This document shows positions 452 to 7,108 of a stretch of DNA of 27,216 nucleotides, one piece after another (position 1 is the stretch's first letter; each line of letters starts with the position of its first letter). A model generated the notes under the pieces. The model saw only the letters and a list, made by a program, of their open reading frames with translations, had not been told where the DNA came from and searched no databases. A program made the translations under genes and the position numbers. Origin of the DNA: an uncultured archaeon (GTDB lineage: Archaea > Asgardarchaeota > Hermodarchaeia > Hermodarchaeales > Hermodarchaeaceae); contig CAYFXC010000005.1 of assembly GCA_964347045.1 (NCBI GenBank), forward strand, positions 1-27,216. Reading direction: 5' to 3'.

Positions 452-1915
452 CTAAGGACCTCCTGTTGGTAGCAATTGTAGACATGCTGGAGTTATTCTA
501 TCCACCATCATCGCTGGAAATAAACCCAAAAGAATGATGGGCAAAATAAGAAGGACTGCTCCAAAGATTTCTACGCCCTTTGCACGTTTCATAGAGGCGC
601 CAGGTAATGGGTCACTGAGAATTGTCCGGTCAATTGTCCAAATGAAATATGCTGAAACAAGTCCTGGTGATAAAACAACTATCGCCATTAATGGATAGAT
701 GGTGATGGTTGCGGTGATAATCATGAATTCACTGACAAAATTCGAAAGAAAAGGCAATCCCATTGCTGCAAAAGAACCAAAGACAAATAATCCAGATGTC
801 AATGGCATATGGGTTCCCATGCCTGAAAGTTTGTCAATGGCTCTGGAACCTGCATTTTCCTTAATAATCCCTGAAAGCAGAAATAGGAGGCCAATCGCAC
901 AAGCGTGGTTAAACATTTGAAAAACGGCACCAGATATGCCAATTAAACTGCCCGAAAAGGTACCTAATAGGACGAATCCCATGTGATTGATACTTGTTAA
1001 AGCAATCATCCGTTTCATATCACGTTGAATTAGTGCCACAAAGGCACCATAGAATATTGTAAAGATAGCTAATATCATGAAAACCAATGAGAAAGCAATT
1101 GAAACTTCTCCGAACAAAGTTAGGTTAATTCTTAGGAATCCATATCCTCCCATCTTTAGAAGGACTCCCGCGAGAAGTACACTGATTGGTGCTGGTGCTT
1201 CCACATGTGCATCTGGTAGCCATGTATGAAGGGGAACAACAGGTAGTTTTACAGCAAAGCCTAGAAATGTCATGGTCATTGCAATAAATTGTACGGAGAT
1301 CGGTAGTGAGGTTTGCATGAGAGTAACCAGGTCAAACGTATGCGGTGATACACTGAGATAGATTACAATAAAGCCAAGAAGCATGATAGCGCTTCCGACA
1401 TGTGTGAAGATAAGAAACTTCATTGCCGCATACCGCCGATTCGTTCCTCCCCAGACACCAATGAGAACGAACATTGGAATTAGGACTAGTTCCCAAAATA
1501 TGAAAAACACAGCTAAATTAAGCGAAATAAAAACACCAATTAAACCTACTTCGAGAAGCAATAATGTACCATAATACTCCGAGATATTTTCAGTAATTAA
1601 TGTATTAGATCCGATGGCGGCGACCATGGTTAATAGAGTCGTGGCTAAAAGAAGTGGAAAGCTGATCCCATCAACACCAAGTTGAAAAGTAATTCCGATT
1701 GTCTCTGCCCACGATATATTTTCAAGAAATGAAAAACCTGTTTGGGATGGATTAAACCATAACCAAAGAAGAGCTGAAAATACGAATAGTATTGTTGGAA
1801 ATCCAATACCGAGAATTTTAGCAACTCGTAAGTTTAATCGTCCGACGGTGTAGGTTAGAAGTGAACCTATTAACGCTCCGAGTAAAAGCCATGTTAAAGG
1901 TGATAGTATTAGCAA
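452..1915 (-). CDS. nuoM: Complex I-like subunit M (canonical copy, 'M3')
   Basis: LGVDGIS, FWELVLIP (TM5 Glu), AVKLPVVPLHTWLPDAHVEAP (TM7 Lys), LLKMGGYG (TM8 Lys), FVSEF (TM12 Glu). TTG start with GAGG upstream. Confidence 0.93.
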   Translation of the reverse strand: MLILSPLTWLLLGALIGSLLTYTVGRLNLRVAKILGIGFPTILFVFSALLWLWFNPSQTGFSFLENISWAETIGITFQLGVDGISFPLLLATTLLTMVAAIGSNTLITENISEYYGTLLLLEVGLIGVFISLNLAVFFIFWELVLIPMFVLIGVWGGTNRRYAAMKFLIFTHVGSAIMLLGFIVIYLSVSPHTFDLVTLMQTSLPISVQFIAMTMTFLGFAVKLPVVPLHTWLPDAHVEAPAPISVLLAGVLLKMGGYGFLRINLTLFGEVSIAFSLVFMILAIFTIFYGAFVALIQRDMKRMIALTSINHMGFVLLGTFSGSLIGISGAVFQMFNHACAIGLLFLLSGIIKENAGSRAIDKLSGMGTHMPLTSGLFVFGSFAAMGLPFLSNFVSEFMIITATITIYPLMAIVVLSPGLVSAYFIWTIDRTILSDPLPGASMKRAKGVEIFGAVLLILPIILLGLFPAMMVDRITPACLQLLPTGGP

Positions 1916-1925
1916 TGCCTCGACC

Positions 1926-3977
1926 TCATATCCAAAATTGAGCTATTATGAAAATAATGAACGCAATAATTCCCAAAATGAAAGCAACAACATAATTCTC
2001 GATAATCCCAGTTTGTAATTTACGAATCAAGTTGGATGTTTTTTTTCCAAGTAAGGCGATAGAATTGATTGTTCGATCAACAACTTTGTCGTCGAAGAAT
2101 TGGCTTGCTTTCGATGAAAGAATTGTTAATTGTGCAAAAAGCGTGTTTATCCGTTCAAACCCTTGGTTTTCAAAGTAGTGATGAGCGCTTCTACTTCCTT
2201 GGATGGCTTGGGGAGAGAGAATATAGTGTGATCGGTCAATTGCGCCAATCTCAATCCTATTGAAGAGCGCATTGAAAAGCCAAAGCGAACCTTTGACAAA
2301 GATTTTGTCATAAAGAGCGTCAAAATAGTATCCATTGGTCAAAATTTTTTGAATGCCTTGTGTAAATTGACTCCTACCTATTCTCTCAGATGAGGGTTTG
2401 CGAGCTAAATAAACAATTGACACAGGAAATGCACCGATTATTAGAGCCGACAATGAAAGGAGAATGGGAATTAATTCGAATTCGAATAGGTGTTCGGTAT
2501 GAAGAAATAATCCCAGTAATCCAGAAGGTATGAGGAATCCAGAGAAACAAACGGTGCCTGCTAGTATTACAAGCGGAACAGTCATTGATTTAGGACTTTC
2601 ATGAACTCCTTGGGTTAGACTATTCGATCGGGGAACCCCTAAAAATACTAATATCAACCAGCGAAAGCTATAGGCCACTGTAAAGACTGAGGCAAGCCAG
2701 ACCATCATTAATGGAATGTAGGCTTCTGTATGCCATACTGCTGCGAAGATGAGATCTTTACTCCAAAAACCGTTAAGCGGAGGCACTCCTGACAAAGCCA
2801 GTATTCCAATAATACTTGTAGCGAAAGTTATCGGCATTTTTTGTCGCAGACCCCCCATTTGAGTAATATCAGATGTTCCTATTGCGTGTAAAACGGAACC
2901 TGCACATAGAAAGAGAAGTGCCTTAAACAATGCATGACTGAGAACATGAGCCTGACCAGCGAACCAGCCAAACGAAGATCCGATGCCTAGCCCCGTTAGA
3001 ATTAGACCTAATTGGCTTATTGTTGAATAGGCGAAAACGCGTTTTAAGTCATTGGAGGCTAAAGCCATGGTCGCAGTGAGCAGGGCAGTTATTGCACCCA
3101 CATAGATTGCTGTGGTAAGCCAGATTTCGATATTTTGGAAGATTACAAACGTACGACTAACTAGATAGATGCCTGCTTTAACCATGGTTGCCGCATGGAT
3201 TAGTGCGCTAACCGTACTGGGACCCTCCATCGCATCTGGTAACCAGACATGAAATGGAACTTGCGCTGATTTGCCCATAGCGCCTCCGAGAGTGAGAAGA
3301 GAAACCAGGCCTAGTGATTGTAATCCAATTTGCCCAAATTGCACAGCTTCATGCAAGTACAAGAAATCGAAAGAGCCAGTTAGAGTGAACAAGAAGATTA
3401 TGCCAATCAATAATGAAATGTCACCTATACGAGTGACAACGAATGCCTTCATTCCTGCTCGGGCTGCGGATGCTTTTTGATACCAGAAACCAATGAGTGC
3501 ATAAGAACACACTCCCACTACTTCCCAGAAAATAAAGAGTTGTAAAAAATTGTCAGCAAGAACTAGCCCAACCATGGCTCCAATAAAAAGTAAAATCAAG
3601 GCATAATAGCGAGTTTGGGCTTTGTCCTGGTGCATGTATCCTATCGAGTAGAATATAATTAGCAAGCCTATGATTATGGCTATATTAGCCATAAATACGC
3701 TCAGTGGATCAGCTAGCACTCCTATGAAAAGACCAGGTGGTGATGGAGGCGAAATTGGTTGGATAAGGGAAATTGGAATCCAAAGATATTGTTCATGGAT
3801 TGGAATTGTTTGATATAGAATATCAGGAATTAATGATATTGAGAAGAGTGCTGTGATCACACCAAAGACGATGGCCAATGTTTTTGGTAACTCCTGGTGA
3901 AGTCTACCAATAATAGTGATTAATAGTGAACCTAGTATAGGAATGAGCCAAACTAACCAAAGAGCAAAGGGGAGCAC
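1926..3977 (-). CDS. nuoL: Complex I-like subunit L with elongated C-terminal lateral helix
   Basis: FWEVVGVCSYALIGFWY, AFVVTRIGD, GKSAQVPFHVWLPDAMEGPSTVSALIHAATMVKAG, GFWSKDLI (TM12 Lys), YYFD...QTG lateral helix plus terminal TM. GTG start after GGAGGT. Confidence 0.95.
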   Translation of the reverse strand: MLPFALWLVWLIPILGSLLITIIGRLHQELPKTLAIVFGVITALFSISLIPDILYQTIPIHEQYLWIPISLIQPISPPSPPGLFIGVLADPLSVFMANIAIIIGLLIIFYSIGYMHQDKAQTRYYALILLFIGAMVGLVLADNFLQLFIFWEVVGVCSYALIGFWYQKASAARAGMKAFVVTRIGDISLLIGIIFLFTLTGSFDFLYLHEAVQFGQIGLQSLGLVSLLTLGGAMGKSAQVPFHVWLPDAMEGPSTVSALIHAATMVKAGIYLVSRTFVIFQNIEIWLTTAIYVGAITALLTATMALASNDLKRVFAYSTISQLGLILTGLGIGSSFGWFAGQAHVLSHALFKALLFLCAGSVLHAIGTSDITQMGGLRQKMPITFATSIIGILALSGVPPLNGFWSKDLIFAAVWHTEAYIPLMMVWLASVFTVAYSFRWLILVFLGVPRSNSLTQGVHESPKSMTVPLVILAGTVCFSGFLIPSGLLGLFLHTEHLFEFELIPILLSLSALIIGAFPVSIVYLARKPSSERIGRSQFTQGIQKILTNGYYFDALYDKIFVKGSLWLFNALFNRIEIGAIDRSHYILSPQAIQGSRSAHHYFENQGFERINTLFAQLTILSSKASQFFDDKVVDRTINSIALLGKKTSNLIRKLQTGIIENYVVAFILGIIAFIIFIIAQFWI

Positions 3978-5579
3978 TCAAAGACCTCCTAAGAGCGTTA
4001 GTATAAGTTGCTGTGCAAATGGGTAAATGACTTGTAAAATGAGCCATGGGAAGATACCGAGAAAAACGACTAGAAAAGCTACCAGAAGCATAGGTCCTGT
4101 CATTATGGTTGGTGATTCATGAACATCCTCGAAAAGGCGAGGAATGCCCTCAGGTGGGATTTCTAGCCCCTTTTTGTAGCGTTCAAAAAGTTCGTCTAGT
4201 GCTTCGGAGGGTGGTCCGAAAAAGATACGTCGAATTGTCCATAGATAATAAGCTGCTGTTAGAGCCGTTGAAGCGATTCCTACTACTCCTATGATAATGA
4301 ACCATGGATTAAGGATACTTGCCTGAAAGACTCCTAAGAAAATGAGAACCTCACTGGCGAAGGTTCCCATTGGAGGCGTTCCTGCTATCGCTAATGCCCC
4401 AACAAGACCAATTGTCGCTGTTACAGGCATCTTTACAGCGACCCCGCCCAATTTATTGATGTATTTAGTTCCTGCTGAGTGAACAAGGGATCCTGCACAA
4501 TACAATAAAATACCTTTTGCGAAGCCATGGGTTATTACATGAAAAAGACTACCTGCAATGCCGATTTCAGTCATCGTACTGAGACCTAGAAGAATATACC
4601 CGATTTGATTTGCTGAGCTGTAAGCTAGGACTCGTTTGAAATCAACTTGTACAAGTGCCATTGCTGCTCCCCAGATCATTGTGGTCAGTGCAAGAACTGC
4701 AAGTAGAAAGTTGCTCCTCAAAATGACTTCTGGAAAGAAAAAGTACGAAATTCGTACAAAGCCGTACGCGCCAGTCTTAATCATTACTGCGCTAAGAAGT
4801 GCATGGATCGGAACGGGGGCTTCTCCATGAAAATCAGGAAGCCAAGAATGAAGGGGAACAATTGCCATTTTCACAAAAAAGCCTACAGACATTAGGAAGC
4901 AAATGCTTTGTACAATCAAAACCCCGCTCGTACTAATTAGCGCAAACTGACTGGGCAAATCGTAGATGTCAAATGTTTGGGTTAAGCCAAAGGTCCATGC
5001 GATGCCTGCTAAAAGACAAAGTGCACCAACAACTACATAGAGAATGTATTTGAGTCCAATTGTCTTTGCACGTGGGGTTCCCCAATTTGATACCAAAAAG
5101 TAAGCCGGAATGTTCATACCCTCGAAGAAAATGAAGAACTGAATCAAATTTGTCGATAGAGTAACACCTACCATTCCCACTGCAAACAAAAGCAGCAAAA
5201 AGTAATACATAGCAAAATCATGCTTTTCCTTAATGTATTCGATGCTGTAGATGGATGAAATGGTGGCTAGACCCAAAATCGCGAGTGAGAGGGGTAGGCT
5301 CAGGAAGTCTGAGAGTAGGGAGAAACCTACTGTTAAAGACCCAATTGAAAACCATGGATACTCTTCATGTAATGGCTGTCCGGTGATGAGTACCTGGTTA
5401 AAGACGATTAATAAAAGGAAGAATGATGTGCCTAGTGCCAGTGAAGAAAAGATACCTGCACTTTTCCGGTCGAGTGGCTTCCCAAAGATTACTGTAGCCA
5501 AGATGATTAGAGCAACGATTGTTGGCAGCAAAAGTGCAAAAAGCATTAAAGGTGTTGTCGAAGGTGTTCCGGGAAGCAA
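3978..5579 (-). CDS. nuoM: Additional NuoM-type antiporter-like subunit ('M2')
   Basis: FFEGMNIP, FVKMAIVPLHSWLPDFHGEAP, MIKTGAYG, KRVLAYSS, FASEVLIF (TM12 Glu). Start re-called to the TTG at 5579, which follows GGAGGT and the previous stop. The track start at 5771 overlaps the upstream gene. Confidence 0.85.
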   Translation of the reverse strand: MLPGTPSTTPLMLFALLLPTIVALIILATVIFGKPLDRKSAGIFSSLALGTSFFLLLIVFNQVLITGQPLHEEYPWFSIGSLTVGFSLLSDFLSLPLSLAILGLATISSIYSIEYIKEKHDFAMYYFLLLLFAVGMVGVTLSTNLIQFFIFFEGMNIPAYFLVSNWGTPRAKTIGLKYILYVVVGALCLLAGIAWTFGLTQTFDIYDLPSQFALISTSGVLIVQSICFLMSVGFFVKMAIVPLHSWLPDFHGEAPVPIHALLSAVMIKTGAYGFVRISYFFFPEVILRSNFLLAVLALTTMIWGAAMALVQVDFKRVLAYSSANQIGYILLGLSTMTEIGIAGSLFHVITHGFAKGILLYCAGSLVHSAGTKYINKLGGVAVKMPVTATIGLVGALAIAGTPPMGTFASEVLIFLGVFQASILNPWFIIIGVVGIASTALTAAYYLWTIRRIFFGPPSEALDELFERYKKGLEIPPEGIPRLFEDVHESPTIMTGPMLLVAFLVVFLGIFPWLILQVIYPFAQQLILTLLGGL

Positions 5580-5581
5580 TT

Positions 5582-7108
5582 TTATGAACCTCCCAGGGTG
5601 AGCGTCATTATCCATTGAGAGATTGGATTGAGGACGAGATTGGGCCAAAATCCAAGGAGAATAGCAAGAAACGCGAGAAAGACAAGTGGGATCGTAAAGG
5701 ATAACGGTTGGTTTGTCGAATGTGATGAGGTTACACTTGAAGGAGCCACGAATAAGCGAAAAAGAAGCCACAACAGATAACTGAAGGTCAAAACAACCGA
5801 AAGAACGGCTGGAATAGCAATGATAATCGACCCCGGAACTGTGAAAACCCCGGCAAATATGAGAACTTCACTAACAAAGCCATTGAGTGGAGGTATGCCA
5901 GCTAAACCAAGTGATCCCACAAGTAAAGCCGAACTGGTTATTGGTATTCGGCGTCCAAAGCCACGTAAATCGTCTAATTTGGAAGTATTGGCTAGTTTAA
6001 TGAAAGATCCCGAACAAAGGAAAAGAAGACTCTTGAGAATCGCATGATTAACAATATGGAACGCAGCGCCACCTAGCCCGATAACCGAAACCGAAACAGC
6101 TCCCAGGAAAATGTAACCCGCTTGACTAATGCTTGAATAGGCGAGAAGTCGTTTTAGCTCAGATTGTCCTATTGCCAAATACCCGCCATATACTATTGAA
6201 ACAAATCCTATGAAGCTTAATGGTATAGTCCATAGAATCATTATAGATGGGAACCAACTAGAAATCGCTCGAACGAGTCCGTAGGCACCAATCTTTGCCA
6301 TTAAACCTGAGATAATTGCGGATACAGGAGTTGGTGTGTGTACGTATGTGTCAGGTAGCCAACTATGCAAAGGGACAAGACCTAGCTTTACACTAAATCC
6401 TAAAATCATGGCAATGGCTGCAAAACGTAATAGATCCGCAAATGTGCCTACATTCATTAGAGCGGTTGGCAGTTCTATCAAACTACTAGTACCTGCTAGC
6501 ACAACAACTTGAATAATGCCAATAAGCAGAAAAAGAGCTCCAATGTGAGTATATAGAAAGAATTTCAATCCAGTCTTTCTAACAGCAGCCCGTTCAATGC
6601 CTGGTTCGCTCCAAAAAATTAGTAGTAAAAAAGCAGGTATGAGAGTTAATTCCCAAAAAAGATAAAAGAAGAAAATATCTGCTGCAGCGAAGACACCTTG
6701 TGTTCCAACATAGAGAAGCAATAATTTTGCATAAAAGAAACCTGTTTTTTTATCTTCATCAATATATGCTCCGCCAAATAACAAAATGAGAAAAGTTACA
6801 ATTGCAGTTATAACCATTATGGGCAGACTTAGGCCATCCAGCATGAAACCAAATTGAATATTCAAAACAGAAAGCCAAGGCAAAATCTCTACAACTATTC
6901 TGCCACTTAGTATCTCACTACTTTGAACCAATAGGGCAATCAGAGAAAATAAAATAGCTATCATACTAGCAATCTGTGCACTCTTTCTTCCGCGTCGATT
7001 AAGTAAGAGAACCAATGGAATAGCAAAAGTGGGAATTAAAATCGATAGAGTGAGAGAATATGGCATTAGATAAAACTGAATAAATGCCCACAATATTTCT
7101 AATACCAA
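5582..7108 (-). CDS. nuoM: Additional NuoM-type antiporter-like subunit ('M1')
   Basis: FMLDGLS, FWELTLIP, SVKLGLVPLHSWLPDTY, MAKIGAYG, LKRLLAYSSISQAGY, FVSEVLIF (TM12 Glu). Confidence 0.85.
   Translation of the reverse strand: MVLEILWAFIQFYLMPYSLTLSILIPTFAIPLVLLLNRRGRKSAQIASMIAILFSLIALLVQSSEILSGRIVVEILPWLSVLNIQFGFMLDGLSLPIMVITAIVTFLILLFGGAYIDEDKKTGFFYAKLLLLYVGTQGVFAAADIFFFYLFWELTLIPAFLLLIFWSEPGIERAAVRKTGLKFFLYTHIGALFLLIGIIQVVVLAGTSSLIELPTALMNVGTFADLLRFAAIAMILGFSVKLGLVPLHSWLPDTYVHTPTPVSAIISGLMAKIGAYGLVRAISSWFPSIMILWTIPLSFIGFVSIVYGGYLAIGQSELKRLLAYSSISQAGYIFLGAVSVSVIGLGGAAFHIVNHAILKSLLFLCSGSFIKLANTSKLDDLRGFGRRIPITSSALLVGSLGLAGIPPLNGFVSEVLIFAGVFTVPGSIIIAIPAVLSVVLTFSYLLWLLFRLFVAPSSVTSSHSTNQPLSFTIPLVFLAFLAILLGFWPNLVLNPISQWIMTLTLGGS

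Follow-up and report, generated by a model that had tools for sequence, protein, structure and literature searches.

The NuoL encoded in the window, by which we mean the whole 27,216-nt stretch of Asgard archaeal DNA analyzed here, carries a triplicated docking module in its lateral helix (the strap), and the operon in which it lies encodes five antiporter-like subunits: M1, M2, L, M3, and N. The new element is this five-pump case, in which module and pump number match at plus two. Across related operons, the module count does not track the number of antiporter-like genes; straps of three modules occur with five, four, or three pump-like genes.

The complex I operon, which lacks NuoEFG, runs along the minus strand between 12222 and 1, in the order A-B-C-D-H-I-J-K-M1-M2-L-M3-N; NuoK is thereby encoded upstream of nuoL, and NuoM and NuoN downstream (Table 1). 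Pfam agrees with the NCBIfam calls in assigning L to NuoL and M1, M2, and M3 to NuoM. A sequence-only reading of this DNA had matched two extra strap modules to two extra M subunits, and both counts are supported: two additional modules of ~26.5 aa accompany three M-type genes, and the channel residues TM5 Glu, TM7 Lys, TM8 Lys, and TM12 Glu are kept in each of M1, M2, and M3. The longest open frame for M2 covers 3978-5771 on the minus strand (597 aa from a GTG at 5771) and overlaps the end of M1 by ~190 nt; the start is likely the ATG at 5546, 35 nt past the M1 stop. Two further features of M2 are a "HESP" loop resembling that of L and ~40 inserted residues ahead of its last TM helix. The remainder of nuoN (residues 133-495) lies elsewhere in the same assembly, at G000:C52:2296-3384 on the minus strand, the split reflecting an assembly break; both nuoN pieces are ~89-91% identical to the orthologue in G007.

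The window protein is a bona fide NuoL. It scores 518 bits against the NCBIfam model TIGR01974 (NDH_I_L; cut-off 407.5) and 552.2 bits against NF005141, slightly below the cut-off of 556, and contains PF00662 (43.6 bits) and PF00361 (270.9 bits) domains. Comparison of its predicted model with solved NuoL chains (VIA-align) returned Z scores of 51.8 for 8e9g_L and ~51 for E. coli chains; the match covers model residues 3-607, corresponding to chain residues 1-590 and including the start of the lateral helix, and is uninformative on the strap past residue 607. The TM15, lateral helix (HL), and TM16 extension is present, and the YYFD...QTG frame aligns with that of E. coli NuoL.

Table 1. Pump genes of the window operon and segments of the NuoL C-terminus (window coordinates)
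Feature	Position	Strand	Description
M1, extra NuoM-like subunit	5585..7108	-	508 aa; NDH_I_M 324 bits
M2, extra NuoM-like subunit	3981..5546	-	~522 aa from ATG at 5546; NDH_I_M 295 bits
nuoL	1926..3977	-	683 aa; GTG start; stop codon 1926-1928
TM15, before strap	2406..2474	-	residues ~502-524; AF2 helix, pLDDT about 90
Proximal strap	2256..2369	-	residues 537-574, conserved YYFDALYDKIF motif; AF2 helices 537-547 and 550 onward
HL unit 1	2175..2255	-	residues 575-601, IEIGAIDR..., anchor D581; closest to canonical unit
HL unit 2, extra module	2097..2174	-	residues 602-627, FENQGFER..., anchor E608
HL unit 3 and canonical tail	2007..2096	-	residues 628-657, FDDKVVDR ... IRKLQTG, anchor D634
TM16 anchor helix	1929..2006	-	residues 658-683; hydrophobic after QTG; AF2 helix; aligns with E. 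coli TM16
M3, orthodox NuoM	455..1915	-	487 aa; NDH_I_M 468 bits
nuoN, first 150 residues	2..451	-	contig end cuts gene

Triplication of the strap module

The interval from Y551-F552-D553 to Q655-T656-G657 of the window NuoL is 107 aa long (window 2007-2327), and its three acidic anchors, D581, E608, and D634, are spaced by 27 and 26 residues. The span, the three related units, and the anchor positions are all as first described from the sequence alone. The same interval measures 54 aa in a canonical paralogue from the same genome (on contig C4 of G000) and 49 aa in E. coli K-12 NuoL. An insertion of ~52-54 aa had been expected; it measures 53 aa against the in-genome paralogue and 58 aa against E. 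coli. In a multiple alignment, the inserted residues line up as a single block that follows the first canonical unit and precedes the RKLQTG tail. A common pattern, hydrophobic-[D/E]-x3-hydrophobic-[D/E], recurs in each module and is followed ~14 residues later by a conserved Ser.

Repeat structure was assessed on a gapless family alignment (A1) of nine NuoL C-termini, 26-45% identical to the window sequence in this region, across which the 107-aa span is free of indels. A plain lag autocorrelation of the family profile has its top peak at lag 27, with competing minor peaks at 15-16 and 42; in its place, we used a register search with unequal lags, in which every start position and every lag pair between 20 and 35 was scored for the best three-fold self-match. 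The optimum recovered the proposed lags of 27 and 26, with units starting at 575, 602, and 628 and a score of 26.8, as compared with −21.9 ± 6.9 (maximum 0.36) in 300 column shuffles, or z = 7. A 24-position HMM of the canonical unit clearly matches unit 1 (10.8 bits); its matches to units 2 and 3 are weak, near zero bits, yet fall in the expected register, at offsets of ~27 and 53. Within the window protein alone, the units share ~15-20% pairwise identity, so the significance of the repeat comes from the family profile.

The low pairwise identity, the near-zero HMM scores of units 2 and 3, and the minor lag peaks would each be compatible with a chance resemblance of three "units" inside a generic amphipathic helix, with no true repeats. 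We consider this very improbable: none of the 300 shuffles came close to the observed score, the insertion amounts to exactly two unit lengths (53 aa), and strap spans among the best 150 profile matches in a wider search (below) fall in one-unit steps, with near-identical units in some of these proteins. Chance resemblance was accordingly rejected by the unbiased register search, and the triplication of the docking module in the window NuoL strap is real.

The wider HMM search covered 1.84 billion representative proteins, and the spans of its best 150 matches cluster near 54, 80, 107, 137, and 157 aa, so module number varies widely in nature. One NuoL C-terminal fragment (P0056) has four units and a span of 137 aa; another (P0023) has five near-identical units and a span of 157 aa, and this near-identity could reflect either a recent duplication or an assembly artefact. 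A word-indexed search of a 5.8-billion-protein set with residues 540-683 returned the window protein and two close relatives, a method too insensitive to describe the distribution.

Strap length and pump number among relatives

Sixty loci around NuoL homologues in same-phylum genomes plus eight metagenomic contigs were compared by counting pump-like genes and measuring the strap span (Table 2). All M1-M2-L-M3-N operons with an assembled L C-terminus have the 106-107-aa span, in three L lineages; the g1 genomes among them are G000 (which contains the window), G003, G004, G008, and G007, the last with its operon split over C147 and C83. No five-pump operon with a shorter strap was found among the loci compared, and the five-pump operons share one origin. 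Among 400 genomes, M1 orthologues were identified only in g1 (6/14 genomes, including the window's own) and g18 (3/5), and M1-bearing genomes with an assembled matching NuoL C-terminus always have three strap units. A distant metagenomic relative, L059 (an 11.5-kb Logan contig from SRR30965922), also has an M-M-L-M-N layout and a 106-aa strap; in its operon, nuoA is followed by nuoH without intervening nuoB, C, D, or I, then by a fused nuoJ/K and the pump genes.

Table 2. Strap span, unit number, and pump-like genes at the loci compared
Strap span	Units	Gene layout	Pump-like genes	Loci
26-27 aa	0	L plus one	2	three loci
53-54 aa	1	L-M-N	3	many loci
80-81 aa	2	L plus one	2	genus g69
about 80 aa (estimate)	2	L-M-N	3	one locus, L052
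106-107 aa	3	M1-M2-L-M3-N	5	five g1 genomes, G311 (g18), L059
107 aa	3	M'-L-M-N	4	contig C2 of the same genome and three congeners
106 aa	3	A-B-C-D-H-I-J-K-L-M-N	3	13/13 g32 genomes with locus examined
	3	K-L-M-N	3	metagenome loci L055 (107 aa), L057/L058

Three-module straps also occur with fewer pump-like genes. A second long-strap operon in the window's own genome (G000:C2:3010-9773, plus strand) has the order K-M'-L-M-N, and its strap, designated type B, aligns to that of the window without gaps; the NuoL of this operon has a 47-aa tail past QTG, leaving room for two TM helices. A third complex-I-like cluster in this genome (G000:C4:128696-134256, minus strand) is an L-M-N arrangement with a one-unit strap, whose N-like gene falls into two frames (292 and 377 aa), owing perhaps to a frameshift, to misassembly, or to a genuine split of the gene.

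In g32, the 106-aa strap is found beside L, M, and N alone. These three genes are whole at 11 of the 13 loci, the other two loci being cut, and the complete one-contig genome G100 contains three PF00361 genes in total. The G100 locus (L064; G100:C1:4872784-4892284) and those of 12 other g32 genomes consist of an 11-gene nuo operon whose strap has a conserved Trp/Asp/Cys periodicity, with a geranylgeranyl-reductase-like gene downstream of nuoN. Three units are likewise present at metagenome loci L057/L058, for which the scripted span of 123 is a mis-measurement. In genus g69 (L071, L072, and L080), an 81-aa two-unit strap occurs in a cluster of NuoL with one pump-like gene, unlike a nuo operon.

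Two strap modules thus occur with two or three pump-like genes, and a rule of one module per M is valid only for the 0-unit, 1-unit, and M1-M2-L-M3-N cases. Module number therefore does not follow the count of pump-like genes across the related operons. The sequence-only reading named single-nuoM relatives with a helix of equal length as the case that would count against it; such relatives essentially do exist at phylum level (g32), the K-L-M-N metagenome clusters also have three units, and an equal strap accompanies two M genes (M'-L-M-N) within the same genome. The proposed molecular ruler fares better in part, in that the strap measures 106-107 aa in all M1-M2-L-M3-N operons, a length that fits three M subunits; the equal span with four or three pumps speaks against it. 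Because the strap is equal in operons with five, four, and three pump genes, its length is permissive rather than diagnostic. The five-pump layout may require three strap modules, but their presence is clearly insufficient evidence for that layout; since one strap serves all three operon types, pump number cannot be inferred from strap length by sequence. The claim that strap length independently shows three M subunits to sit in a single arm is consequently unsupported, as four- and three-pump operons share it.

Quick trees of NuoL and of the M subunits, with modest backbone support, place the NuoL of five-pump and four-pump operons separately, nest one-unit sequences among three-unit ones, and set the g32 lineage at a distance, beside bacterial-like sequences. 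These scattered positions suggest that the strap was lengthened at least twice. In the M tree, M1 forms its own clade and M3 groups with E. coli NuoM, while M2 and M' (the latter without the TM8 lysine) fall in a class that acts as the sole "M" in the ordinary L-M-N operons of relatives. Taken together, the placements of M1, M2, and M3 favor a chain L-M2-M1-M3-N.

Predicted strap structure and proposed arrangement of the arm

An AF2 monomer model of the window NuoL, built from a 35-sequence alignment, is confident in the core, with pLDDT of only 36-57 over residues 528-683. DSSP assigns helices to 502-524, 537-547, 550-603, and 611-682; the break at 604-610 falls where unit 2 begins. The strap of a g32 NuoL monomer model has pLDDT of 39-58; confident intramolecular strap packing was observed in neither model, and monomer models with strap confidence this low do not discriminate between an extended and a folded-back strap. 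Model residues to ~606 already span the entire canonical strap (to ~590 in E. coli), and ~51 residues plus TM16 extend past the canonical strap path.

The family-averaged hydrophobic moment is moderate (0.3-0.6), and its phase plateaus jump by ~130 degrees from unit to unit, the product of a 26.5-residue repeat in an ideal helix. Since the hydrophobic face turns by this angle with each unit, the strap cannot be one straight rigid helix, and keeping one face on the membrane would need re-phasing at the unit junctions. The continuous amphipathic helix of the sequence-only reading is not borne out by the low pLDDT, the break at 604-610, and these phase jumps; the strap is best described as three amphipathic segments rather than one rigid helix.

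We tentatively place this three-module array on a five-pump arm; the most likely arrangement, which we regard as just short of probable, has L forming the distal tip and N the proximal end, with the three M-type subunits lined up between them. The strap consists of three amphipathic docking modules of ~26.5 aa in tandem, which would have arisen by duplication of the single canonical one, and, if helical, it would be ~80 Å longer than in three-pump complex I. One module would dock on and overlie each M-type subunit, and all five pumps would belong to one arm, with TM16 held at the M3/N end as it is in canonical complex I. M2 would lie beside L because the M2 class adjoins L in ordinary L-M-N operons, and M3 beside N because M3 is the orthodox NuoM; with the extra M genes upstream of nuoL, gene order does not mirror this proposed physical order. 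The insertion size, the three-fold repeat, the fixed strap length, the residues past the canonical strap path, the intact channel residues, the clade positions of M2 and M3, and the published precedent of a 26-aa strap insertion beside an added pump in 2M complex I and Manganitrophaceae Complex_I_3 (PMC9040806; PMC6606698) argue for the arrangement. Against it stand the 107-aa strap with four pump-like genes, the 106-aa strap with L, M, and N alone, the three units of the metagenomic K-L-M-N clusters, the two-unit strap of g69 with a single further pump-like gene, the low AF2 strap confidence, and the hydrophobic face that rotates with each unit. It is possible, if somewhat doubtful, that the operon encodes a true "3M" complex I, with L, M2, M1, M3, and N in one arm under the three-module strap, evolved independently of the bacterial 2M and Manganitrophaceae solutions; if so, this would be an archaeal (Asgard) enzyme moving perhaps six ions per two electrons.

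Alternatively, the long strap may be constant, inherited in this NuoL lineage, with the extra pumps added elsewhere: M1 and M2 might lie distal to L (physical order M1-M2-L-M3-N) or in another assembly, and the surplus might reach over N toward the NuoK/J/A/H end or bind lipids or another partner. Such an inheritance is suggested by the identical length (107 aa) in five- and four-pump operons of one genome and the 106-aa strap of three-pump g32; because the length is equal in all three operon types, distal addition leaves the same two-module surplus in each. The position of the extra M genes upstream of nuoL is also in line with distal addition, the canonical gene order L-M-N being the distal-to-proximal order, and NuoL strap insertions have been reported in complexes without an extra NuoM (Yu et al., PMC9040806). 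However, the M2 class sits proximal to L, beneath the strap, in ordinary L-M-N operons, and in the five-pump lineages the three units are conserved and the length is fixed. The surplus modules, moreover, have no known partner. On balance, we hold a constant strap with pumps added elsewhere to be unlikely, though far from negligible.

The coexistence of three-unit straps with L-M-N operons would also be accounted for if the two extra modules doubled back along the membrane surface, in a zig-zag or as an antiparallel pair of helices (a hairpin), adding little net length, so that the strap would work as a canonical one irrespective of pump number. The even number of extra modules, the AF2 helix break at the start of unit 2, the presence of P590, G594, and G606 in or near junctions, and the phase jump at every unit boundary are all consistent with folding back. 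However, it would leave unexplained the odd extra-module counts seen elsewhere (spans near 80 and 137 aa), and the AF2 models of the window and g32 proteins contain no confident packing of the strap on itself; we judge it improbable.

Comparison with known complex I variants

Most descriptions of complex I give it three pump subunits. Five pump genes together with a strap longer by exactly two modules would extend the known complex I series, and the window operon would offer a natural test of the role of the lateral helix.

One of the closest known parallels is 2M complex I (Chadwick et al., 2018, ISME J 12:2668), which, as described in papers citing that work, is defined by a fourth pump together with one 26-aa insertion in the strap (PMC9040806; PMC6606698; PMC7419157). 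The window operon resembles 2M complex I in the lengthening of the strap via duplication of a ~26-aa module and in the presence of additional NuoM-type genes, and it resembles some 2M clades in lacking the NuoEFG input module. It differs from 2M complex I in having two extra modules (53 aa) rather than one ~26-aa insertion, two extra M-type genes rather than one additional nuoM, extra subunits that belong to two other clades and are not recent duplicates of the orthodox NuoM, and an archaeal (Asgard) host. Gene order also differs: in Chloroflexi 2M operons, the order is nuoL-M-M-N, with the extra M between nuoL and nuoN, whereas the extra M genes of the window lie upstream of nuoL, as K-M1-M2-L-M3-N (PMC7117926).

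Five pumps have been described in Complex_I_3 of Manganitrophaceae, in which two MrpD-like subunits replace NuoL and the strap has a single 26-aa insertion (Yu et al., 2022, PMC9040806). The window cluster likewise encodes five ion-pumping subunits and a lengthened strap; however, it has a true NuoL (518 bits, Z about 52), two insertions, and three NuoM-like genes plus NuoN, and M1 and M2 score best as NDH_I_M. Full-text searches of the accessible literature turned up neither a case of three nuoM genes combined with a NuoL lengthened twice nor any mention, for Asgard archaea, of three nuoM genes or of an additional NuoM.

In Manganitrophaceae, Complex_I_1 and Complex_I_2 combine a lengthened NuoL strap with a single nuoM (PMC9040806). 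Modular lengthening of the strap is common to these complexes, the single-nuoM clusters of g32, and the window, and three-unit straps of 106-107 aa occur among such clusters. Unlike these single-nuoM clusters, which have long straps and no extra pump genes, the window operon has as many strap modules as M-type subunits.
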